Shown here in pieces: positions 29,664-48,471 of a stretch of DNA of 52,833 nt. The notes under the pieces are model-generated. The model did not search any database. It saw nothing but the letters and a program-made list of their open reading frames with translations, and was not told where the DNA came from. The DNA comes from a virus (taxonomy: Duplodnaviria; Caudoviricetes). The position numbers and the translations under genes are program-made. Location of the stretch: IMG/VR virus record IMGVR_UViG_3300034993_000256, positions 1 to 52,833 of that record; one strand, 5' to 3'. Position 1 is the stretch's first letter. Every line of letters begins with the position of its first letter.

Positions 29664-29948
29664 CTAGCCTCTTAGCGGTTGACGGCGGATGATCTCTTCG
29701 ATCTCACTACTCTCGACGAGGATCGTGACTTCGATGCGGCCTGGGTGACAGTCGAGATCGCGAGCGCAGGCATTCAGAGTATGCCAGATCACCGGGAACG
29801 GATCAAACCCACTCCCGGCCTGACGATTCGCAGACTCTGCGACACTGACGCCGTTGTTTTGTTGTTCGTGCTTCTGGACGACCGTTGCGGCTGTCCACCC
29901 TGGATTGGTCTCATTCCAGGACAATACGACCTTTGCCGTGGCACTCAC
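29664..29948 (-). CDS. hypothetical protein
   Basis: GGAGGAG RBS and GTGA overlap at 29945-48. Confidence 0.6.
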   Translation of the reverse strand: MSATAKVVLSWNETNPGWTAATVVQKHEQQNNGVSVAESANRQAGSGFDPFPVIWHTLNACARDLDCHPGRIEVTILVESSEIEEIIRRQPLRG

Positions 29949-30199
29949 GACTCCTCCGCGATGCACCAGAGATAGCCGGCGCGCCGTTCGATGTGGCCAG
30001 CGCGCTCGAGTCGCTTCACGACGTAGTAGCACTGCCCGCGGGACAGCCCTGGCTCACGCTCGGTGAGCGACCGGCGGATGTCGATGAGTCTGGTGCACAA
30101 ACCGTCATCGGCACGCCGCTTGATGAGCTTGAGAGCCACCTCATCACGTTCGACGACCTCTCTCCGTCGCGGCGATCCGATACCGTCACGTGTGGTCAT
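29945..30199 (-). CDS. winged-helix-like DNA-binding protein
   Basis: AGGAGG RBS, TAATG overlap; LSRGQCYYVVKRLERAGHIER. Confidence 0.65.
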   Translation of the reverse strand: MTTRDGIGSPRRREVVERDEVALKLIKRRADDGLCTRLIDIRRSLTEREPGLSRGQCYYVVKRLERAGHIERRAGYLWCIAEES

Positions 30200-31413
30200 T
30201 ACTTCCTCCTTGGTCTGACATCGTAGAACCATTCTCTGTCGCCGACGGGCGTACCTTCTGGGAGCTCGGATACGTCACCCTCGATGGCGAGTTTGATCCA
30301 CTTCCCCAGGAATTGCCCGCATTGGACGGTGATGCCCTTCCCCCAATAGTCTTTCAGACCCTTATCGTCGGCAAGCGGAGCAATCTTCCACGTATCCGGA
30401 AACCCCATCGCTCTTGCGACTTCACGGTGCGTGATGCGCCTCGGCAACCAGGGGTGAATCACATTCCCGATGGCACCACCATAGATGACATACCCTGGGC
30501 GATCTGGCTTCCACCGCGTCGTCGGGAAGTAGCCGGATGTCCACCCCCGCCGTTCGTGTTGCGCGATCTCGTCCGGTGTCCACGGCTCGCCAGGGTGTCC
30601 GCCCATACGTTCCGTTCTACGGCGCAGGATCTCTTCGTAATTCTCGCCAGGCGCCCACTCTTCCTGTTCGAGCAGGATGGCAAGTCGACTCCCGCGCCTG
30701 TCGGTGAGCGGCGGCGACCAGTGTCCGTCCGTACCGAATAGGCCTCGTACCTGGTGCGTGGCCCACAATGACGCCAGTGTCGCGCCGTATCGTTGGAACC
30801 CCCAGTCGTCACCTGGCATGTCGACGAGATCATGAATCGCATCGGCCCACGTCGGCTGCAGTGTCACTGGTGTCACATCGACTCGGAATGGTATCCGGTG
30901 AACGACCCAGAAGTAACGGCGTCGAGTGCACGGACCACCAACGGCCGCGGCATCGTGCTTCACGTGCGTGAGGTCGTACTTGAGACCAGAGATCGCTTCG
31001 AGGTAGTTCCGGAGGTCGACCATCAACTTACGACCGTCAGGGCGACTATACGCGGGCATCACGCTCTCAAATGCGGCGATCTGCGGCTTGACCCTCGCGA
31101 CGTAGTCGGCGAAGTCCCACATGCAGTGGTTGATTGGACTGTCGGCACCGCGGAATTCGGTATTGCTCGCGACCGAGAACCCGCTGCACGGCGGATTGCC
31201 GAGCACGAGCTCGACATCATGTACTTCCCACCCCGCTGGCGCCTCGGCCTGCCACTTCCAATCGTATCCGAGCAAGTGCCGATTATGATCGCAATTCGGG
31301 ATGCCGAATCCGCCGACGTTCTCGACCTTGTGGACCATTCGCAGGCCGGCTTTCGTCGCGCCCATGTCCATCCCGCCAGCGAAACTTTGACAGGCAACGA
31401 AGTGAACGGTCAT
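30199..31413 (-). CDS. C5-cytosine DNA methyltransferase homolog with divergent motifs
   Basis: Motif IV GNPPCSGFS, VI FESV, VIII RRRYF, IX REVARAMGFPD; atypical motif I CQSFAGG and motif X WGKGI. ATG 31413 is coupled to the upstream stop. Confidence 0.88.
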   Translation of the reverse strand: MTVHFVACQSFAGGMDMGATKAGLRMVHKVENVGGFGIPNCDHNRHLLGYDWKWQAEAPAGWEVHDVELVLGNPPCSGFSVASNTEFRGADSPINHCMWDFADYVARVKPQIAAFESVMPAYSRPDGRKLMVDLRNYLEAISGLKYDLTHVKHDAAAVGGPCTRRRYFWVVHRIPFRVDVTPVTLQPTWADAIHDLVDMPGDDWGFQRYGATLASLWATHQVRGLFGTDGHWSPPLTDRRGSRLAILLEQEEWAPGENYEEILRRRTERMGGHPGEPWTPDEIAQHERRGWTSGYFPTTRWKPDRPGYVIYGGAIGNVIHPWLPRRITHREVARAMGFPDTWKIAPLADDKGLKDYWGKGITVQCGQFLGKWIKLAIEGDVSELPEGTPVGDREWFYDVRPRRK

Positions 31414-31760
31414 CGTACGATCTCCAGTGCTTCGCGCATGGTCACCCGAGTAACTTGGGGGTGTTCGACCCACGTGCCAGGAGGATCGCCAACGAGGAGT
31501 ACCGGGATACTCAAGGCGATGGCGGCGCCGATCTCGACGTGAGCACCCTTCCATGGTCCGTCACCCTCGAAATGAACTGCGATGAGGTAGTCCGCAGAAC
31601 GAACCTCTGCGATGCATCTGAGCCAGAATTGCCGCCAATCCTGAATGGCGTCCGACTCATAGAGATCGATCCACGATGAGGTGATGGTGATACCAGCATC
31701 GCGAAGTGCGACCCACTGGGGCCCGTGTTTCGCCTTGGATGCGATGTAGACGCGACTCAC
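31410..31760 (-). CDS. nucleoside 2-deoxyribosyltransferase-like protein
   Basis: VYIAS, SSWID, V.SAD, GAHVEIGAAIA and PVLLVG motifs. Confidence 0.8.
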   Translation of the reverse strand: MSRVYIASKAKHGPQWVALRDAGITITSSWIDLYESDAIQDWRQFWLRCIAEVRSADYLIAVHFEGDGPWKGAHVEIGAAIALSIPVLLVGDPPGTWVEHPQVTRVTMREALEIVR

Positions 31761-31954
31761 TCTTGGACCTCCGGTCGTTCTCGTAGTACGACGACCAGGT
31801 CCACGACGTCGTCGACTTGGAATGCGTATGGGTTGCCGACCGGGCAGATCATCGTCGCCGGTGCCGGGTGATTTGGTTCGATCTTCGACTCCCCATCCCA
31901 GAGTTCGACTGCATTGTCGTGAATCGCCACAACGCGATAACTCGCGAAGTTCAT
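31757..31954 (-). CDS. small hypothetical protein
   Basis: GGAGG RBS; overlapped start and stop with neighbours. Confidence 0.6.
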   Translation of the reverse strand: MNFASYRVVAIHDNAVELWDGESKIEPNHPAPATMICPVGNPYAFQVDDVVDLVVVLRERPEVQE

Positions 31955-32400
31955 TCGAACCCGACCTCCTTCAGGATGCCGGCGATGTCCGGCGGCGTCC
32001 AATCCGGTCCCTTCACGACGTCCCACGTGCCGCCCCTGAGAGATTGATCTGCGGTCGTCGCCCGCAACTTCATCATGTTCGCCCGCTGGACCTCGTCCCA
32101 GCCCTCCTGCCACGGGTAGCCGAAGAGGTGTGCGGTCCCCATCGCGACGTAGACGAGATCGATGAGAGCATCGAACATCTGGGCGTGATCGCCTAGTGCG
32201 ATACCGTCACGGAATTCGTCGAGCTCTTCTGTGAGAAATCGAACCCGGAATTCGACGAGTTCTGTCGTGACATCAATGGGCCCCGGATCACGATCGCTGG
32301 TGTGGAGGTCGAACTTGCGGTGGAAGTCGCCGACGTCCTCGAAGTTGGACGAAGTGCACACCGTATCGATGTCTATCGGTAATGGCTTGAGGTCCGCCAT
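31951..32400 (-). CDS. MazG-like (all-alpha) nucleotide pyrophosphohydrolase
   Basis: EELDEF, DALIDLVYV, EVQRANMMK, KGPDW.PP motifs. Confidence 0.88.
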   Translation of the reverse strand: MADLKPLPIDIDTVCTSSNFEDVGDFHRKFDLHTSDRDPGPIDVTTELVEFRVRFLTEELDEFRDGIALGDHAQMFDALIDLVYVAMGTAHLFGYPWQEGWDEVQRANMMKLRATTADQSLRGGTWDVVKGPDWTPPDIAGILKEVGFE

Positions 32401-35762: not shown

Positions 35763-36151
35763 ATCCCGGTGTCCCACCGCTTGTCCGGGTGCCACTGTCG
35801 CTGAATCTCGCTGGCAATGCGGGTAATCGCCGACAGCTTCTCGTCGGCGTCCGCCTGGGGTCGCAGCGTGTTGCGGAAGGTAAAGCGGAGGGCGGCCTCG
35901 ACCAACTGCTCTGTCAGTTGGTCGGGGGGCTTGTTCGCTTTCTCTTGCAGTCTTGTGACCTCTTGGAGGACGCTGTCGGCGGTGTACTCCCCGAGGTGAC
36001 CGGAGAGATCGAAACACTCGCCGACCGCGTCCCAGTGTTTCAGCACCTCGAGCGCCTCTGTCTTCCAGCGCCGCAGTCGGTTGATCTCCCTGGTCATCGC
36101 GTCGTACTGCTCAAGTGGGGCGAAGGCTGGGTAGTCGTCGCGAGCGCTCAT
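35759..36151 (-). CDS. hypothetical helical protein
   Basis: ATGA overlaps at both ends. Confidence 0.7.
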   Translation of the reverse strand: MSARDDYPAFAPLEQYDAMTREINRLRRWKTEALEVLKHWDAVGECFDLSGHLGEYTADSVLQEVTRLQEKANKPPDQLTEQLVEAALRFTFRNTLRPQADADEKLSAITRIASEIQRQWHPDKRWDTGI

Positions 36152-36915
36152 GACGGGAACTTCACTCTGTGCTTCTCGATTTCGTTGAGGAAGCGTTGAC
36201 CACGTTCCGGGTCGCTGTCTGGCATCCCCTTGGTGTGGAGTTCGTTCCAGACGTCCTCCAGCGAGTAGCGGGTACGGATCCGTGGGTGCGCCGGCGGCGG
36301 GGTCGAGAATGGATCCCAGCCCCCAGAGATCAGCAAAGCGATCATTGTCTCGTACGCCGCTTCCCAGGGGAGGGTCTCACAGCGCTCCTTCTTCTCCGTG
36401 AAGCGCTCGCGGATCTGCCGGACTCGCTTCCACTGGTGATCGACGGTCGCTTCCTCGTTGATGCCCTTCCCCGTCGGCCCTTTCCCGTCGTTACGGGACA
36501 GGATACGCTCGCGACAGACCTCGAGCGGCGTATCGAGGAAGGCGAACGTGATGCTGTTCTGCACGCCCAACGTCACGTCGAGGCGCTTACGAAGTTCGTG
36601 ATAGCGACCGATCGCGAGGCTCGCCATCATCGACTCGAAGATGACGTGCGGGTAGATGGCGCAGTTCCGTTCGAGCCAGAGTGTGACCAACTCGGTCTTG
36701 CCGGGCATCAACATGTCCATGCCGCCGGTCTTCGCCGTTGGCGCGTACGGACCGACGATGAATAGGCCGCCGGCGAGGAGGTGTCCGACTTGCCGAGGCT
36801 TGACCTTATTCCAGCCGACCTTCTCCCAGACCTCGACTGAGGGGTAATCCTGCAGGAGGCGGTAGAGGCTAGTTGACTTACCGCTGCACGACGAGCCGCG
36901 GATGTTGAGGATCAT
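36148..36915 (-). CDS. P-loop kinase of DNA hypermodification clusters (putative hydroxymethyl-pyrimidine DNA kinase)
   Basis: ILNIRGSSCSGKST, VGPY...GGMD, IFES and FLDTPLEVCRERI..R; near the ADDT-like gene. Confidence 0.75.
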   Translation of the reverse strand: MILNIRGSSCSGKSTSLYRLLQDYPSVEVWEKVGWNKVKPRQVGHLLAGGLFIVGPYAPTAKTGGMDMLMPGKTELVTLWLERNCAIYPHVIFESMMASLAIGRYHELRKRLDVTLGVQNSITFAFLDTPLEVCRERILSRNDGKGPTGKGINEEATVDHQWKRVRQIRERFTEKKERCETLPWEAAYETMIALLISGGWDPFSTPPPAHPRIRTRYSLEDVWNELHTKGMPDSDPERGQRFLNEIEKHRVKFPS

Positions 36916-37118
36916 CAGCCCTCCCGCCAGCTCTTGCGCACCCATTCAGACACCGTGCCCTCACTAACTTTAAATCCGCTTTCACGAAGTTCTCTGGCGA
37001 TTACGGTATACGTCAAACCGTCGTTCTTGTGCCGTCGTTTGATGAACTTGACGACGTCCTCATCCAGCCAATCACTGAGTTCGGCCTTCAAGCTGCGCAT
37101 CGGTCGGTGTTCAATCAT
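36915..37118 (-). CDS. small HTH DNA-binding protein
   Basis: GLTYTVIAREL...VSEGTVSEW; GGAGG RBS, coupled on both sides. Confidence 0.75.
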   Translation of the reverse strand: MIEHRPMRSLKAELSDWLDEDVVKFIKRRHKNDGLTYTVIARELRESGFKVSEGTVSEWVRKSWREG

Positions 37119-37531
37119 ATTCGAGCCTCCAGACTCTCTAGCCACTCGTAGTGGACTGTGTTGACAAGGGCATTTGGCCGGCGAGCACGCACTATGTAGG
37201 CGGCACTCGCGCCGTCGATCCGGTACCGCTCCATCAGGACGAGAGCAGCGATTAGACACGATCGGTTGCGGCCGGCGAGACAGTTGATGACGACGCGGTG
37301 GCCGTGATCCAACATCGCCAGCGCGTAGTCGCGGGCCCGGACGTAATCATCGACCTGAAGACCTTTGCCGTCAGTCACGGGGACGTGCTGCCACCACATG
37401 AGTTTGCGTCGTACATCGGCGGGCGGTAACTTGGTGCAGACCGTGAGGCAGGCCGTCCACTGATAGACCTCGACCTGTTTGACGGTCGGTGTGCCGCACA
37501 CCTCAAGATTCGTATCGATGTGCCAGGGCAC
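37115..37531 (-). CDS. dual-specificity (CX5R) phosphatase
   Basis: Catalytic loop NCLAGRNRS, upstream PVTD acid loop, downstream VRARRP. Confidence 0.88.
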   Translation of the reverse strand: MPWHIDTNLEVCGTPTVKQVEVYQWTACLTVCTKLPPADVRRKLMWWQHVPVTDGKGLQVDDYVRARDYALAMLDHGHRVVINCLAGRNRSCLIAALVLMERYRIDGASAAYIVRARRPNALVNTVHYEWLESLEARI

Positions 37532-38450
37532 GCTTCACCTTCTCTTTCTGCGCCGCTTCGAGATCCGGACGTGCTCCCCACCATTTCATATCGCCGTACT
37601 CGCCGAGATACTCAGGCGGAAACAACTCAAGGCGCAGACGGTAGAACGGAACAACCTGTCGGAGGTCGACGATGCCTCGTTCGTTGAAGTACCCGTTCGC
37701 CTTCCGCCAGTGCGCGAGCTCGCGGTCGTGACTGCGGCCCGGATATTTGCCGTCGAGACTCTGTCGTGCGTTGCAGAGGAGAGTCTCGAGCTGGAACCAG
37801 GTCACGTCCTGCTCAGTCCAAGCCGACGCCGCGAGCGCGAGTTGATTCAACCAGGCCAAAGTCTCTGGTCGATTGTCCTTCGAGTTGATCAGGTCGTCGT
37901 ATTCAGGGAACATCAGGGCGAGCATCTTCCGCGGGTACTTCGCTCCCTTCGCGACGATCGATGACTGCGGTGCGACCTGAAGACCGGCCTGGTGCATCGT
38001 CTCGATGACCTTCATCGTTGCGTACCGGCCGAAGTATTTCGCCCGCTTGCCGATACTCATGTACAACTCATCGTACGTCATTGCATGGACCTCATCGGAT
38101 GACGTGGTGTAGCACCAATCGATCCACGAGACGACGGACTCCATCAGTTTCCGCCGGTCATCACCCCAGACCGACCGCCGCTCACGTCGCATCGGGAACC
38201 CGTCTTTGTGTTCGATGAGGAAGGACGCCCAATCCGTGATGCCGGTCTGACGGAGGTGCCAAAGGACAGCTCCCGAACCGACCGTGTACGGCACGACGAA
38301 CAAGCCGCAGAAGACGGCCTGCTCCGCCGGAATGAGACCCTGCTCCCGGACAGCGCGACCGACAAGCGTCACCTGCGGGTCCGGGCCACCGCTCGCGAGC
38401 TCGGCCCGGCAGAAGTCCACGAAGAGTTCGCGGTAGACATCAGCGCTCAC
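37503..38450 (-). CDS. amino acid:DNA transferase-like protein (ADDT / aGPT-Pplase2, HhH-glycosylase fold)
   Basis: GPDP, RRERR, YFGRY...IE, LETLLC and YPG motifs recalled from this family; GTG 38450 with GAGGTG RBS. Confidence 0.7.
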   Translation of the reverse strand: MSADVYRELFVDFCRAELASGGPDPQVTLVGRAVREQGLIPAEQAVFCGLFVVPYTVGSGAVLWHLRQTGITDWASFLIEHKDGFPMRRERRSVWGDDRRKLMESVVSWIDWCYTTSSDEVHAMTYDELYMSIGKRAKYFGRYATMKVIETMHQAGLQVAPQSSIVAKGAKYPRKMLALMFPEYDDLINSKDNRPETLAWLNQLALAASAWTEQDVTWFQLETLLCNARQSLDGKYPGRSHDRELAHWRKANGYFNERGIVDLRQVVPFYRLRLELFPPEYLGEYGDMKWWGARPDLEAAQKEKVKRALAHRYES

Positions 38451-39009
38451 GTAGCACCTCACGTAAGAGCGTGTCGATGTGTTCGTGGATGTCGACATAC
38501 TCGAACTTGATGCCGAGCATCGCTGCTCTCTTCGCGTCGCTGAAGCTGTCGCCGACGAACCAATCCGGCTGACACCGTTTGAGATTCTCGATCTTCGTTC
38601 CCATGTCGATGCCGTGACAGTGGATGAGTGACTCGAGCTGCACGAGGTGCTCTCGCAACCAAGTACGAATGATCGGTGTCGTGGTGGACGAGATGATGTG
38701 CACGCCGATATGCGCGGCGATCAGTTGGTGAATTGCAGCGATCGTCTCTTTCTTCGGCTTGGACCGGATCGTCACGTCGAACTTCTCAGCGGCGTATGCA
38801 GCGACGGCGAGACTGACTTCACGACCGGTCGAGCACATGATCCGCGGTAACTGCACATCGAACGGGTCGCCTGATGTTTCTCGGTATCGTTGCCGGATCA
38901 CATTCTCATCGGCGACATCCCAGTACCGACCGATGACGTCCACGGCGAGGTCTTCCAACCCGCCCATACTGTCGCAGATCGTGCCGTCGAAGTCGAATGC
39001 GACGATCAT
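38440..39009 (-). CDS. HAD-family phosphatase
   Basis: Motif I FDFDGT, II ISS, III K, IV GDSFSD. Confidence 0.88.
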   Translation of the reverse strand: MIVAFDFDGTICDSMGGLEDLAVDVIGRYWDVADENVIRQRYRETSGDPFDVQLPRIMCSTGREVSLAVAAYAAEKFDVTIRSKPKKETIAAIHQLIAAHIGVHIISSTTTPIIRTWLREHLVQLESLIHCHGIDMGTKIENLKRCQPDWFVGDSFSDAKRAAMLGIKFEYVDIHEHIDTLLREVLRER

Positions 39010-42243: not shown

Positions 42244-44021
42244 AGCGCATAGTCTTCCTTGGAACCCCAGGACTGACCAACGGACGGTGCAACCGTGATG
42301 GGGACGCTGATCAGATTGGCATCGGCCATGATGTTGCAGGCCGAGTCAGCAAGTTCGCGCAACTGATCCGTTGGGACATCGAAGATGATCTCATCGTGAA
42401 CTGGGAGGACGAGGTACGGACCGAAGCCGGCGTGATCGAGTTCGACCAATTTCATCTTCAGCAACTCTGCGGCGGCTCCCTGCACCAACTTGTTAACGAG
42501 CGTGTACACACGGTCGTGATCCATCGGGTGAATCTGGCCGGTGAGTGGTGAACGAGCATAGGCGACACCTTCCTCTTGCCGGCGCTGATTCGCTCGGTTC
42601 TCGATGTGCCGGTTGAGACCTTTCATCAGCGGGTAGCGAGCCGCGATCATGTCGTACATCTGCTGTCCGTACTCAGCTGCGAGACCAGCCGTCTTCGCGA
42701 ACTTCGCGGCGCCAGCGCCGTAGCCAATTGCGTACATGGCATTCTTCGTATGTTGCCTGCGCTCGTCCTTCCGAGTGAGTGTCGGCTCAGCCCACAACTC
42801 GCGCATGATGGCCGTGAACACATCGACGTCTGGGTCGGTGAAGGCCGCGATCAGCCCGAGATCTTGCGACACATGGGCGAGGAATCGCAACTCGACCTGG
42901 TCGTAGTCGACCATCAATAGCGTATTGCCGGGCGATGCGATCAGTGCCTTACGAACTGTGATCGCAGCCGGGTTGTCTTCTGAGGACCGCGGCAGGTTCT
43001 GGAGGTTCGGTGCACTCATCGTCATACGAGTCGTCACCGCGCCGCACGATTTGATGCTTGGGTGTAGCCGAGGGTCTTCGTCTGTCGTCTCTTCGACGAA
43101 ATGACGGAGATACGTCGACGCGAGCTTGGAATACCGACGATGTTCGAGTACCGCGTTTGCGAGTGGGTGCAGGTGAGCGATGGGACCGAGCACGAATTTG
43201 TCGAGTTGAACGGCGCCAGAGGCGGTTGTCTTGTCGAGTGGTATCCCATCAGCGATCAACCGTTGAGCAACCGATGCATTCGCACTCGGTCGGACGCCGT
43301 AGTGCTCACTGCACCAATCGCTGACTGACTTGGCGTATGAGCGGAAAGATACAAGCGCCTCACTGGCGAATGGACGGTCAACCATGATGCCATTGCGCTC
43401 CATCTTCTCCACGACCCAGGCAGCTGCCAGCTCGAGTTCGTACGCTCGTGTCGCACCCATTTCCCGGACTTTCGGCATGAGGATGGCGGCAAGCCGAGTA
43501 GTGAGGACGACGTCCATCGCTGCGTACGTCCAATACGGCTCGTAATCGACGGGGACTGTTGCCCAAGTCCATCCTGTCGTACTCTTCCACTGATCTTGGA
43601 GAGCGAGTGCCATTGGGTCCACATACCGGCCAGCGAGTTGCTTCAATCCGCCGGACATGTTCGGCTCGATGGCGTGCGCCATCAGCATTGTGTCATCACA
43701 GCGATCCTGCGGCATCTGATAGTCACAGGTGGCACGGATCATCCCGACATCGAACTTCATGTTGTGCAGGACCATGCGACCGTCGTAACGGTCCATCGCT
43801 TCCAAGAACACGCCGCCCCACCGCTGCCATGGGATCGCCCAACCATGCACTTCGTCGCCGATCTGCACAAGCCGGACTTTGTCGTGTTCGATACGCAGGC
43901 CCTCCGTTTCAGTGTCGACGGCGATCCCGCCTTCACGTCGCTCTCCGAGCCAGCGCATCATCTCATTCGCTGTCTCGAGGTCATCGACTAGGTGCAACTT
44001 GACGTCGGCGAGTGAACTCAC
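42240..44021 (-). CDS. polA: DNA polymerase, family A, with 3'-5' exonuclease
   Basis: Exo DTET, HNMKFD, YAAMD; polymerase motif A DYDQVELR, B RQHTKNAMYAIGYG, C VHDE. Confidence 0.95.
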   Translation of the reverse strand: MSSLADVKLHLVDDLETANEMMRWLGERREGGIAVDTETEGLRIEHDKVRLVQIGDEVHGWAIPWQRWGGVFLEAMDRYDGRMVLHNMKFDVGMIRATCDYQMPQDRCDDTMLMAHAIEPNMSGGLKQLAGRYVDPMALALQDQWKSTTGWTWATVPVDYEPYWTYAAMDVVLTTRLAAILMPKVREMGATRAYELELAAAWVVEKMERNGIMVDRPFASEALVSFRSYAKSVSDWCSEHYGVRPSANASVAQRLIADGIPLDKTTASGAVQLDKFVLGPIAHLHPLANAVLEHRRYSKLASTYLRHFVEETTDEDPRLHPSIKSCGAVTTRMTMSAPNLQNLPRSSEDNPAAITVRKALIASPGNTLLMVDYDQVELRFLAHVSQDLGLIAAFTDPDVDVFTAIMRELWAEPTLTRKDERRQHTKNAMYAIGYGAGAAKFAKTAGLAAEYGQQMYDMIAARYPLMKGLNRHIENRANQRRQEEGVAYARSPLTGQIHPMDHDRVYTLVNKLVQGAAAELLKMKLVELDHAGFGPYLVLPVHDEIIFDVPTDQLRELADSACNIMADANLISVPITVAPSVGQSWGSKEDYAL

Positions 44022-44482
44022 AGAACCTCCACCCCGATACCGAGTGAGCGCAGGAATCGATAATTCTCGTCCGCCTTTCGGTATTCCCGGCCGGCATCAG
44101 TCTTCACGATGACCATAGCGAGTCCGCTGTTCGCGATGAGCTTCGCGCAGTTGAAACAGAGGTCGCCAAGGACGTAGATGGTGCCGCCCTGCCAAGCCGA
44201 GCGATCGGCTGCCATTAAAGCATTCGCCTCGGCGTGAAGGGCGTAACAGTCGTCGTACAAGGGACTGAGTCCATCTCCCAATTTCACCGCTCTCGGGCAC
44301 CAATTGACACACGACTCATCGCGGTGATCGAAGTGCGCAGGGGGGTTGTTGTACCCTGTCGCGATGACACGATTACGTGAGTCCGTGATGACGGCGCCGA
44401 CGTGCGCTCGCGAGCAGAGGCTTCGTTCAGCGATCACCGTCGCGGCCTCGAGCCAGACTTCATCCCAGGTTGGACGGGTCAT
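44018..44482 (-). CDS. dCMP deaminase
   Basis: C....VGAVI, TGYN, HAEANAL, C..CAKLI.NSG. Confidence 0.9.
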   Translation of the reverse strand: MTRPTWDEVWLEAATVIAERSLCSRAHVGAVITDSRNRVIATGYNNPPAHFDHRDESCVNWCPRAVKLGDGLSPLYDDCYALHAEANALMAADRSAWQGGTIYVLGDLCFNCAKLIANSGLAMVIVKTDAGREYRKADENYRFLRSLGIGVEVL

Positions 44483-45360
44483 GAGATCGCCTCCACCTGC
44501 TTCCACGCCGCCCCCAAGCGGGTGTGGTACCATTGGTGCGACGGCGGCTCGTCTCCGATGTTACGGCCTTCGAGGATGTCGTACGCCGTAGTCAACAGTG
44601 ACCGACCAGACATCATCCCGCCTTGCGCCGGATGAAGACCGTCAGGCAGCGGGTTAGTCGACTTCCACCCTTCATCGAAGGTGAGGGACCGGGCCCGTTC
44701 GAGATCTTTCTTGTAGAGGTGCATCGAGATGGAGTGGTGACAGTATTCGCCGATCTCACGCCCGAGGAAGTTGGCGACCGTACGTTGGAGCTGACGGAAT
44801 TGGAACACGTCGAACGGCATACCGAGCCACACATCGCTCGATCGCATGACAACACTGAGAAGGAGCAACTCATCCCGGATGCGGAATGTTAGCGCAATGG
44901 TGCACGGGATGTCCTTCGGCATCGGATCACGCCACTCACTGTCTTCGTTCTTGTCCCAAATCTGGATCACGGCCTGCCGACTGCTCGGGTCCATCTTCAA
45001 CTTGTTGACAACATCCATGATCTGGTTGTCGATGCGCCCACCGTAGTTCCCGTGGACGGTACCGTCGGCTTCCCGGACGTAATCAGCCACCCCCGCTGCG
45101 ACGGCCTCAGTGAGGCGTGGTAATTCAATACCGGCACAGAGTTGAATGGCTTCGGCTGCGGCGAGGTTTGTATTGATCTTGCGTCCGACGCCGAGCGGAA
45201 GGTCGAGCGCTTCAGGAGCGAGCGTGAATACGAAGTCGTCAGTCTCATATGCCATACCAGCCCGGCTCTTAATAACGGTGTCGTAGTGCCGATCGACTCG
45301 TCGGACGAGGGACATGTACCCTTTTCGCCAATCGTCGTAATAGTCGTTCATGTAGGCCAT
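44479..45360 (-). CDS. thymidylate synthase superfamily enzyme, Asp-type (dCMP hydroxymethylase/methylase-like)
   Basis: SRQAV..IW, DIPCT, MRSSDVWLGMPFDVF, SMHLY. Confidence 0.88.
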   Translation of the reverse strand: MAYMNDYYDDWRKGYMSLVRRVDRHYDTVIKSRAGMAYETDDFVFTLAPEALDLPLGVGRKINTNLAAAEAIQLCAGIELPRLTEAVAAGVADYVREADGTVHGNYGGRIDNQIMDVVNKLKMDPSSRQAVIQIWDKNEDSEWRDPMPKDIPCTIALTFRIRDELLLLSVVMRSSDVWLGMPFDVFQFRQLQRTVANFLGREIGEYCHHSISMHLYKKDLERARSLTFDEGWKSTNPLPDGLHPAQGGMMSGRSLLTTAYDILEGRNIGDEPPSHQWYHTRLGAAWKQVEAIS

Positions 45361-45953
45361 GGATGTGTCTCCTCGTAGGTTGGGATCGGATTTCTGTACC
45401 CCGCAACCGATGCCTCCATGCGAGCGCTGGCTAGAATGGCTGGCGCAATAGCGCTCGCTTGTGTGAGGTCAGTGTTAACGACCTTCAACTTAGGGCCGGG
45501 TGTCATGAATTGCACATCCAAGAACAGCCCGGCATACGCATTGTTGATCTTAGGCAGGAGGTGCGGGTCGATGAGGTCGTCACCCCGCTCCGCGAGACGC
45601 TTCATGAGGACGGGGCTGGGGGCATGTGCGTGAACATACAACGCACCCCTGTCGCGGAGTAGTCCGTCAAGCCAGCGTGCCTGCGCTAGGCTCAGTTTGC
45701 TTGCACCCCTCAGGATCGGCCCGTACACGAGCTCGCCGAGGTGCCAGCGATCCATCACGACGAGCCAGTCCTGGTTCGGGGTCAATGCGAGGAGATCCTG
45801 AGCGTACTCCTCCCAGGGTCCGTGCTCTGCCGTGAAGGGCCCGCGGTTCCAAACGGCGCTGCCCCCGCGACCTTCTTCTGCGTACACTCGGATGAGTTCG
45901 TCGCGGAGGGTCGACTTGCCGGCGCAGTCCGGACCTTCAAGGAGGATGATCAT
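45348..45953 (-). CDS. dNMP (thymidylate kinase-like) kinase
   Basis: LEGPDCAGKST, DRWHLGELVYG, R...RGD. Confidence 0.88.
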   Translation of the reverse strand: MIILLEGPDCAGKSTLRDELIRVYAEEGRGGSAVWNRGPFTAEHGPWEEYAQDLLALTPNQDWLVVMDRWHLGELVYGPILRGASKLSLAQARWLDGLLRDRGALYVHAHAPSPVLMKRLAERGDDLIDPHLLPKINNAYAGLFLDVQFMTPGPKLKVVNTDLTQASAIAPAILASARMEASVAGYRNPIPTYEETHPWPT

Positions 45954-46910: not shown

Positions 46911-47558
46911 TTATTTACGGCGGGCGACGCTGACCGCCGTACCTCCGAGTGTCAATAGCACGGTCACGATGATCAGAAGGGTGATTGAGTTGCCAGTCGG
47001 CGGGAGTTCGGGCGGGTCAGTGACGACCGGCCCAGAGGAAGAAGACGGTAATGAAGACGATGATGGCACTGACGACGAGGAGGGCGACGACGATGAAGGT
47101 GGTGTAGTCGTCGACGTAGCGGGGGAGGTCGTCGTAGTATCGGTCGGCTGTGTCGTCGTCGGGGAAGTGGATGTCGGCGGGGTCGTCGTGGTCGTTGATG
47201 TCGTCGTCTCCTCTGGGATGGTGGTCTCTGGTGGTTGATCGCTCTTGCAGACGTAGGCGTGACTGATCTCGTACTGCTGGTAGCTCACGTCGAGCACCTG
47301 GCCTGGCATGACCGGGGTGAATGTGATGTGCGATCCGCCGCCCGGCCCGCCGACCTTCAAGATGACACCGGTGACCGTCCACCCTGACGGCGGAGTCGGA
47401 ACGGTGAACGTATAGCCGTCGAGTGGTTCGACCTTGTAATCAAAGGTGGTCCCTGTCGGGCACGAGAAGACGTCGCCGTCTTGGGCCGCCGCGACGGCTG
47501 GGACGAGAAGGGACAGCAGCGCTCCAAGGAACACGGCTGCGATGGACTTGTACTTCAT
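46911..47558 (-). CDS. secreted sortase-anchored (LPxTG) surface protein
   Basis: Signal peptide MKYK...AAAQ, ~85-aa domain with two Cys, T/S-rich stalk, then LPPTG, TM helix and ARRK tail. Confidence 0.85.
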   Translation of the reverse strand: MKYKSIAAVFLGALLSLLVPAVAAAQDGDVFSCPTGTTFDYKVEPLDGYTFTVPTPPSGWTVTGVILKVGGPGGGSHITFTPVMPGQVLDVSYQQYEISHAYVCKSDQPPETTIPEETTTSTTTTTPPTSTSPTTTQPTDTTTTSPATSTTTPPSSSSPSSSSVPSSSSLPSSSSGPVVTDPPELPPTGNSITLLIIVTVLLTLGGTAVSVARRK

Positions 47559-47758
47559 GGGTGCCCGCTTTCTATTGGTGGAGATTGAGATGGTGGCAGC
47601 TCGAAGGCGACCAGGCCGACGCCGTAGCCCCAGTCGGCTTCCTCGACTGGCTTCGCTCCGAGGACACGCGCGGCGTCGAGGTCGTCTACGACGGTCATCA
47701 GAATTGATGGCTCGTTGCAGCAGAGGCAGCCGATCGACATCACGACGTACTGGCTCAT
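47555..47758 (-). CDS. small hypothetical protein
   Basis: GAGGTG RBS; GCLCC; coupled at both ends. Confidence 0.6.
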   Translation of the reverse strand: MSQYVVMSIGCLCCNEPSILMTVVDDLDAARVLGAKPVEEADWGYGVGLVAFELPPSQSPPIESGHP

Positions 47759-48471
47759 CCCGGCCACCTCGCACAATCCCCGTTGCGGATGTGCAGGTTC
47801 GGTCGGCCGTTGTCGTAGTAGCACCACGGACGCTTGCCTTGGTCGGTGAGCACCGCGACGTAGGCAAGCATCGACGGCCACGGCGCTGCGATCGTCGCTT
47901 CGCGCGTGCAGATCCCGACCTTCTCGCATGTGAACGGCCGGAGGACATCGGTGATCTGCCCGAAGCCAACATCCTCTCGGGTGCCTTGATGGGCGCGCTC
48001 GGTGCACGGCATCAGCATGTAGGTGTCGTGCGACCAGGCTCGGCTGTTCCAACAGAACGCCGACTCGCCGGCCATGATCTGTTGCACGAACGTCGCCCGC
48101 GCCTCGATTTGAATCTCGTTCCATCCGTAGAACGCGGCGACCACCCGGTATGCCTCCATCGCCGGGGCCGGGCACTGCCAGCAATAGGCGAGACCGTTGA
48201 CGTAGGCGACGGGGTCGAACGGCCGGAGCGGTGGCTCCGAAACTTGAATCTGTACCTCGGCCCGGACTGCTGGCTTGGTGGTGATTGCGGCGTCGGTGAA
48301 CGACGGTGGAAGGTTGGTGGTCTGCCAGATTGTCGGCGGAGACGTTTCTATGGTCCGGATCGTGTCAGGCGATTCGTCGGTCATGTCAATGCAGCCGCCG
48401 ATTGCGGCGCCAAGACAGACGGCCATCAATGTTAGGATCGCAGCAACGATACCGATGTCCTGTCGTTTCAC
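47755..48471 (-). CDS. membrane-anchored lysozyme-like/lytic transglycosylase protein
   Basis: N-terminal TM or possible lipobox (AIGGC), T/P linker, SLT-like motifs IMAGES and GFGQI, C-terminal PW. Confidence 0.6.
   Translation of the reverse strand: MKRQDIGIVAAILTLMAVCLGAAIGGCIDMTDESPDTIRTIETSPPTIWQTTNLPPSFTDAAITTKPAVRAEVQIQVSEPPLRPFDPVAYVNGLAYCWQCPAPAMEAYRVVAAFYGWNEIQIEARATFVQQIMAGESAFCWNSRAWSHDTYMLMPCTERAHQGTREDVGFGQITDVLRPFTCEKVGICTREATIAAPWPSMLAYVAVLTDQGKRPWCYYDNGRPNLHIRNGDCARWPG

Follow-up and report, generated by a model that had tools for sequence, protein, structure and literature searches.

We analyzed a 52,833-base IMG/VR virus record, estimated to be 73% complete and called the window here in its full length, and in it the gene P0001 (30199..31413, -), which encodes a 404-aa protein with the fold of cytosine-C5 DNA methyltransferases (C5-MTases). 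The whole open reading frame (ORF) spans 30199-31554 (-). The ATG at 31413 was taken as the start consistent with the family, as homologs of 404-414 aa could be aligned with P0001 from residue 1; this ATG and the stop codon of the upstream gene overlap as ATGA. PF00145 matched P0001, and no other protein of the window, with an E value of 4.2e-18 and 66.3 bits (cut-off 22) over residues 12-373. Two PHROG DNA-methyltransferase families were also matched, and the score with the NCBIfam dcm model TIGR00675 was 46.1 bits, under the cut-off of 100.65. An AlphaFold 2 model made with 40 homologs had a mean predicted local distance difference test score (pLDDT) of 94.2 and a predicted template modeling score (pTM) of 0.92. 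The best Foldseek matches of this model were M.HaeIII (E 7.5e-18), the Cp-933R prophage MTase, and DNMT1/MET1 (template modeling score of 0.73 for MET1), indicating the two-domain C5-MTase fold. A megablast search found no close DNA relatives of the window among deposited phages. P0001 is best explained as a cytosine-C5 DNA enzyme, predicted to be competent for catalysis, from a family found only in viruses and here called the Lys-pocket family.

Residue positions and codons of P0001 were verified by script. A sequence-only reading of this DNA had described a C5-MTase homolog with an intact PPC, motif VI Glu, and motif VIII Arg, and all of these were found in place. Motif IV is NPPCSGFS (residues 73-80; 31174..31197, -), with the catalytic Cys76 (31186-31188) followed by Ser77, where canonical enzymes have Gln. 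Motif VI is FESV (31060..31071, -), in which Glu116 (31066-31068) is retained and Ser117 replaces the Asn of ENV. Motif VIII is RRRYF (30910..30924, -), containing Arg164 and Arg166, and motif IX covers residues 325-340. P0001 keeps the residues predicted to carry covalent catalysis: Cys76, which would attack C6, and the base-holding Glu116, Arg164, and Arg166.

The motif X Asn position is occupied by Lys359. Its AAG codon lies at 30337..30339 (-), exactly where the sequence-only reading had placed a Lys codon in WGKGI (residues 357-361). Both phmmer and the family profile placed the GK(G) of P0001 on the motif X GN(A) of M.HaeIII. In a MAFFT alignment, Lys359 fell in the column of Arg350 of SpCmoX, the CmoX of Synechococcus phage S-B43 (its ORF was taken from the S-B43 genome, and the residue numbering matches the published one). 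The position of the Lys was the same by each of these alignments, in agreement with the earlier assignment. Motif I, CQSFAGG (residues 8-14; 31372..31392, -), is altered too, with a family consensus of [CV][QLMH][GST][FL]AGG. The earlier statement that it is remodelled was borne out, whereas the nature of the change was split between two alignments that disagree: in the profile alignment, the aromatic residue is displaced by two places, turning F-x-G-x-G-G into Q-S-F-A-G-G, whereas BLAST against SpCmoX opened a 3-residue gap, that is, a shorter loop.

The aligned PDB chains show the canonical pocket, FxGxGG, PCQ, ENV, and GN. This pocket is absent from P0001, which has QSFAGG, PCS, ESV, and GK, a pattern found family-wide; the cofactor motifs I, III, and X of the family deviate from consensus. 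Ser77 and Ser117 are two pocket changes beyond those given in the sequence-only reading. The residues predicted to line the space of C5 and the transferable group, namely motif I, Ser77, Ser117, and Lys359, have all been altered and then conserved.

Relatives of P0001 were collected by a word-index search (599 at E<=1e-5) and by an exhaustive search over representatives of 50%-identity clusters (149 at E<=1e-30). An alignment of 151 such representatives was used to count residues. The motif X site was K in 138, R in 3, N, Q, M, and S in 1 each, and gapped in 6. With K in 138 of the 145 aligned representatives, Lys359 is neither a chance residue nor a one-off. A 40-sequence alignment with identities as low as 31% showed no variation at Gly358 and Lys359, and GK followed motif IX in 78 of 80 related viral loci; of the other two, L062 ends at the contig end and L070 falls outside the pattern. 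The Ser77 site was S in 118 of 131 aligned representatives, as in SpCmoX, and the Ser117 site was S in 141 of 146, where SpCmoX has N. The catalytic residues were also conserved (C76, 131/132; E116, 145/146; R164, 146/149; R166, 149/149), the nucleophilic Cys, Glu116, and both Arg being preserved in >98% of aligned representatives.

Cellular genomes were nearly free of the family. Among 185,579 species genomes there was one match, on a 17.5-kb contig of a Coriobacteriia metagenome-assembled genome (MAG), and 400 other genomes of the phylum of that MAG gave 0 family matches at E<=1e-25. No cellular restriction-modification context for the family was found in either set. As far as seen in these genomes, the Lys-pocket family is virus-only. 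Its cultured members include Kurnik, a phage of Micrococcus, as well as Gordonia phage GMA2 and the Forza group. The GMA2 paper, in the text available, offers only speculation on the function of the methylase, and a literature search found no paper on phage Kurnik. No description of the Lys-type family was found in the literature, in a search that did not extend to the supplementary sequence clusters of the CmoX paper.

The window also encodes a cytosine-type thymidylate synthase (TS) homolog (44479..45360, -; PF00303, E 1.2e-18). It has Asp184 at the position of Asn177 of E. coli ThyA and retains the equivalent of ThyA Asp169 (Asp176). Its best PDB match was MilA, a CMP 5-hydroxymethylase (E 1.6e-18), and the N229D mutant of L. 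casei TS ranked above the wild type. Asp at ThyA N177 is reported to specify a cytosine substrate, and D169N to mark 5-hydroxy-dCMP synthases (PMC13326640). By these rules, Asp184 and Asp176 suggest that the window's homolog uses a cytosine nucleotide and is not a 5-hydroxy-dCMP synthase.

For this homolog and for the donor searches below, the longer contigs were picked from the related loci, giving 50 records of 79 loci, 24 of them at least 90% complete. PF00303 was found in 41 of the 50, including all 24 of those at least 90% complete, and all 41 TS homologs, like that of the window, had Asp at the ThyA N177 position (D-type). An independent sample was drawn from relatives of the helicase, chosen without reference to the MTase (38 records of at least 25 kb). 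The GK-type MTase was present in 5 of the 38, all 5 of which had the D-type TS. Among the 15 complete helicase records, 2 had both genes, 11 had neither, 1 had only a canonical PPCQ MTase, and 1 had only an N-type TS. None carried the GK MTase without the D-type TS or the converse, and 13 of 15 had neither of these two. G464 (97% complete), whose helicase is 42% identical, lacked both genes. Altogether, the D-type TS was present in 26 of 26 complete GK-bearing records, and the GK enzyme in 0 of 13 complete relatives without it. The cultured phages Kurnik, GMA2, and DSL-LC01 all carry both genes.

These counts showed a strict link, confounded by common descent, between the family and a predicted cytosine-C5 nucleotide pathway, and the MTase and TS stayed constant across loci while decorating genes turned over. 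The sequence-only reading had suggested a check of GKG-type homologs for co-occurrence with ADDT (amino acid:DNA transferase), TS, or CmoA genes. Co-occurrence was seen for TS in the complete records and not for CmoA (0/50), and ADDT homologs occurred in about 10 of 80 loci and in the window. The virus-only distribution and the co-occurrence with a TS homolog carrying the cytosine-specifying Asp are new relative to that reading.

The same reading had raised carboxy-S-adenosylmethionine (carboxy-SAM, Cx-SAM) as a possible donor. CmoX of S-B43 is described as a natural cytosine C5-carboxymethyltransferase that obtains Cx-SAM from a phage CmoA (Yang et al., Nat Commun 2025, PMC12783734). We searched for CmoA with TIGR00740, for which SpCmoA served as the positive control (115.6 bits). 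The model had no match in the window (73% complete), where the earlier reading had likewise seen no CmoA, and none in the 50 related records, including the 24 that are at least 90% complete. A tblastn search with SpCmoA returned nothing from the 80 loci, the window, or three isolates. In the likely host phylum, that of G051, CmoA-like matches at E<=1e-20 occurred in 3 of 301 genomes, one of them the unpublished genome G052, and none was above the family cut-off. An amide ligase of the AsnB/CmoY type (PF00733) was likewise found in 0 of 50 related records and not in the window. Carboxy-SAM as the donor in this lineage was not supported by these profile and tblastn searches, and we rejected it. 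In Actinomycetia phage DSL-LC01, the gene immediately before that of the GK-type MTase (L123:11434-11943, +) encodes a 170-aa protein annotated as a class I SAM-dependent methyltransferase. As a candidate donor synthase this small protein was rejected; it had no NCBIfam match and was present in only 2 of 80 loci.

Other genes for nucleotide metabolism were found in the window. A dCMP deaminase (44018..44533, -; phrog_174, E 7.1e-35; PF00383, E 4.5e-15) and a dNMP kinase of the thymidylate-kinase-like type (45348..45953, -; phrog_761, E 5.3e-16, with a weak Pfam signal) lie beside the TS homolog, and an all-alpha nucleotide pyrophosphohydrolase of the MazG/PRA-PH type (31951..32400, -; phrog_671, E 1.3e-27; PF01503, E 1.1e-12) lies closer to P0001. 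By family match, the predicted pyrophosphohydrolase, dNMP kinase, and dCMP deaminase of a T4-type cytosine-replacement kit are all present. In 69 of the 80 related loci, the gene immediately upstream of that for the MTase encodes a dUTPase_2/MazG-like all-alpha NTP pyrophosphohydrolase. The gene coupled translationally to the MTase through the ATGA overlap in the window encodes a 116-aa protein like the nucleoside deoxyribosyltransferase (NDT) fold (31410..31760, -; PF05014, E 8.9e-6, 26.3 bits, under the 28.8 cut-off). None of the 80 related loci contained it, even where the MTase is 91% identical, and it is therefore specific to the window. Together with the MilA-like TS homolog, it brings to mind the pairing of MilA with MilB in the mildiomycin pathway.

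A 95-aa ORF (29945..30232, -) that overlaps the MTase gene at its 3' end has TrmB/MarR/HTH_24 matches under the cut-offs (E 0.02-0.06). By tblastn, it was found in 6 of 80 related loci. Many homologs of P0001, of 500-640 aa, carry a fused winged-helix C-terminal domain; in one example, P0055 (636 aa), this domain is made up of the same two families that the 95-aa ORF matches weakly. The shared TrmB/MarR families suggest that the winged helix is separate in the window and fused elsewhere.

Across the 80 loci, the MTase gene stands at the end of a conserved replication/recombination module, composed of genes for a DUF669/single-stranded DNA-binding protein (SSB)-like protein (66), Sak4 (66), a PD-(D/E)XK exonuclease (62), and a helicase (52). 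Variable neighbors are a 454-aa protein without any Pfam, PHROG, or NCBIfam match (52), an RGP/GT75-like protein (28), and an SDR epimerase (26). These three genes sit between the SSB-like and pyrophosphohydrolase genes, for example at L049:5689-7110 (+), L031:8157-9275 (+), and L038:580-1566 (+), and are absent from the window. The trio looks like a putative DNA glycosylation cassette with its own supply of sugar nucleotides.

In the window, a homolog of the 5-hydroxymethyldeoxyuridine (5-hmdU) DNA kinase family (36148..36945, -) and a homolog of Pfam ADDT (37503..38498, -) were also detected. Alone, they scored under the cut-offs (PF18748, 22 bits; PF18724, 24 bits), and their families were matched by all orthologs scanned (8/8, best E 4.7e-8, for the kinase and 7/7, best E 2.8e-8, for ADDT). 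With a dual-specificity phosphatase and an HAD hydrolase, they occupy 36148-39009 (-) of the same window in which the segment 44018-45953 (-) includes the cytosine-type TS gene. Enzymes of these four kinds have been described in thymidine hypermodification. The homologs may belong to a cytosine version of that pathway, or the phage dCMP deaminase may convert hydroxymethyl-dCMP into the uracil series. The kinase and ADDT homologs are variable neighbors belonging to the window's own sub-lineage, in about 10 of 80 loci. Thymidine-hypermodification genes were rejected as the explanation of the MTase family, because the kinase, ADDT, phosphatase, and HAD homologs, present in only 6-10 of 80 loci, cannot explain a family-wide enzyme.

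The hosts are probably actinobacteria. The closest isolates infect Gordonia and Micrococcus, WhiB genes were found in 26 of 80 related loci (none in the window), and the one cellular match was on the Coriobacteriia MAG contig. A 353-aa early-region protein of the window (46911-47972, -) has a weak C-terminal match to the LPXTG anchor (PF00746, E 0.0025, under the cut-off), which fits a Gram-positive host.

The explanation that we prefer, with confidence that stops a little short of even, is that the Lys-pocket enzyme carries out non-methyl or hydroxymethylcytosine-linked chemistry and not plain methyl transfer from S-adenosylmethionine (SAM) to plain cytosine. The family would be a fixed part of a phage kit that alters cytosine at C5 before replication. 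The DNA of these phages would carry 5-hydroxymethylcytosine (5hmC) built from 5-hydroxymethyl-dCMP, and the widened, positively charged pocket would hold an oxygen-bearing one-carbon or larger group at C5. The enzyme would flip out 5hmC, or a cytosine that escaped replacement, and Cys76 would add to C6 of the flipped base. Lys359 may then act as an acid/base or charge partner of the C5 substituent. As a result, the same kind of group would be installed after replication, or the hydroxymethyl group would be activated for exchange. Action on a pre-modified base is plausible from the gene content, and it gains support because the family co-occurs with the cytosine-type TS homolog. The changes in motifs IV and X may fit the acceptance of a larger group, since bacterial C5-MTases are reported to need changes in both motifs, in general, for larger transferable groups (PMC13594970). 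One specific form of this explanation, post-replication hydroxymethyl chemistry at C5 without the methyl group of SAM, in which escaped cytosines would be hydroxymethylated or the hydroxyl of 5hmC exchanged via Cys76/Lys359, is unlikely when taken by itself.

The strongest competitor is an ordinary SAM-dependent cytosine-5 MTase, which would make 5-methylcytosine (5mC) at a short motif, on unreplaced cytosines or as anti-restriction cover. Lys359, the two Ser, and motif I would then form a lineage-specific SAM pocket, and the link with TS would reflect common descent. We regard this as a serious possibility, although we lean against it. P0001 has the fold and all catalytic residues and is above the PF00145 cut-off, and nearly all proteins of the C5-MTase fold are methyltransferases. 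Several further points favor this competitor and weigh against non-methyl or hydroxymethylcytosine-linked chemistry. The acidic Glu31 of motif II, which would bind the SAM ribose, is retained in at least 90% of the 40-sequence alignment, so an adenosyl cofactor may still bind. Neither a synthase for an alternative donor nor any other donor pathway was found, and neither CmoA nor the AsnB-type ligase occurred in any of the 50 records or in the window. The co-occurrence counts are not independent events, because the GK-bearing phages share one replication module by common descent. The prediction that the TS product is 5-hydroxymethyl-dCMP, and not 5-methyl-dCMP, comes from MilA similarity and residue patterns only, and complete replacement of cytosine is an assumption; replacement may be only partial. 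Ordinary methylation would also find cytosine available if the phage dCMP deaminase channelled the product into the uracil series, as it could in principle. Basic residues at motif X also occur in methylating enzymes. Mouse DNMT3A and DNMT3B, reported as AdoMet users, have R887 and R839 at the motif X position of DNMT1 N1580 (PMC13594970), and the engineered M.MedI-N377K, an efficient carboxymethyltransferase, still gave >99% DNA protection with SAM (PMC12015181). A basic motif X residue is therefore compatible with plain methylation or carboxymethylation, and Lys or Arg there does not imply a non-methyl donor.

Other observations speak against an ordinary methylase. Four sites lining the cofactor and C5 were altered and then became near-invariant across clusters down to about 30% identity, and the score of P0001 is under the dcm cut-off. 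The distribution is strict, following the D-type TS in all complete GK records and missing from all complete relatives without it, whereas phage orphan methylases are usually patchy. If cytosine were fully replaced at C5, a methyltransferase would be without a substrate. In addition, the M.MpeI-N374K mutant is reported to methylate poorly, with only 28% protection (PMC12015181).

A Lys-type CmoX, making 5-carboxymethylcytosine (5cxmC) with Cx-SAM from the host or from a gene located in the 27% of the genome that the window lacks, is very unlikely. Arg350 of CmoX stands where HhaI has Asn304 and, in the 8YF3 crystal structure, contacts the Cx-SAM carboxymethyl group (PMC12783734), and Lys359 shares its column. 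P0001 also has PPCS in common with SpCmoX, the engineered Asn-to-Lys enzymes acquire Cx-SAM activity, and the window is only 73% complete. Against this, CmoA was absent from complete records, from the 80 loci, and from the isolates, in contrast to the 4,257 CmoA genes that Yang et al. counted for 5,615 CmoX contigs (PMC12783734). CmoA-like genes were rare in the likely host phylum, the CmoY/AsnB-type ligase was missing, and the kinship with SpCmoX is distant. Less likely still is a protein that transfers nothing but binds DNA and flips bases, for instance to recognize or protect modified cytosine or to act in regulation with a winged-helix partner, since the off-consensus cofactor motifs and the winged-helix fusions that suggest it are outweighed by catalytic residues kept in the pattern of an active enzyme and by pocket changes that are conserved and not decaying.

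If the enzyme is not a plain methylase, the family would be a second natural class of repurposed phage C5-MTases after CmoX, with a different chemistry or donor tied to hydroxymethylcytosine-type DNA. It would then bring either a further DNA modification or another way of making one, and might be useful as a tool enzyme with which to label or read out 5hmC or cytosine. If the form with post-replication hydroxymethyl chemistry were true, it would be the first dedicated natural use of the in vitro side reactions of C5-MTases. If it is a plain methylase, a pocket lined by Lys and Ser would support methyl transfer, as that of DNMT3 does, and the family would warn that the motif X residue by itself is not a safe basis on which to predict carboxymethyltransferases.

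Compared with known systems, the best sequence and fold matches of P0001 were M.HaeIII, M.HhaI, and the Cp-933R MTase (1DCT, 3UBT, 3G7U), with which motifs IV, VI, VIII, and IX align. These enzymes have FxGxGG, PCQ, ENV, and GN, whereas the Lys-pocket family has (Q/H/L)x(F/L)AGG, PCS, ESV, and GK.

CmoX of Synechococcus phage S-B43 resembles P0001 in being a phage enzyme of the C5-MTase fold with a basic motif X residue (R350 or K359) and PPCS. The two are only distantly related (BLASTP E 2e-4; hhalign probability 96.8%). CmoX keeps the canonical motif I and ENV, both of which are changed in P0001. CmoX has R350 and SPPC, whereas P0001 has Lys359 and NPPC. The reported CmoX census was filtered for SPPC and R350 (PMC12783734), which left Lys-type enzymes, P0001 included, outside it. 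CmoX comes with CmoA and frequently with a CmoY-type ligase, and the Lys-pocket lineage was without both in the records searched; its companion gene, unlike that of CmoX, is the cytosine-type TS homolog.

The engineered M.MpeI N374K and M.MedI N377K share with P0001 the Asn-to-Lys change at motif X. For these mutants, a salt bridge between the Lys and the carboxy-SAM carboxylate has been proposed (PMC12015181). Both are CpG methylases in which a point mutation was made in the laboratory and the pocket is otherwise canonical, and they still methylate with SAM, whereas the Lys of P0001 is natural, family-wide, and joined by three more pocket changes. DNMT3A and DNMT3B, like P0001, have a natural basic residue (R887/R839) lining the cofactor pocket at motif X (PMC13594970). 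Unlike P0001, they are eukaryotic AdoMet-dependent writers of 5mC, and no DNMT3 chain was among the PDB sequence matches of P0001 at E<=0.001.

The last comparison is with the reactions of C5-MTases on 5hmC, which use on a C5-substituted cytosine the same covalent Cys chemistry that is proposed for P0001. Papers from the Klimasauskas laboratory reportedly describe SAM-independent reactions of this kind, including dehydroxymethylation, thiol exchange, and aldehyde addition. We know of no natural enzyme dedicated to such a reaction and, to our knowledge, these side reactions are the sole precedent for the C5-MTase fold acting on 5hmC. Ordinary C5-MTases have been reported to form covalent complexes with 5hmC and to strip its hydroxymethyl group (PMC11347137). 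These are slow, in vitro reactions of ordinary enzymes, unlike the dedicated role proposed for P0001.

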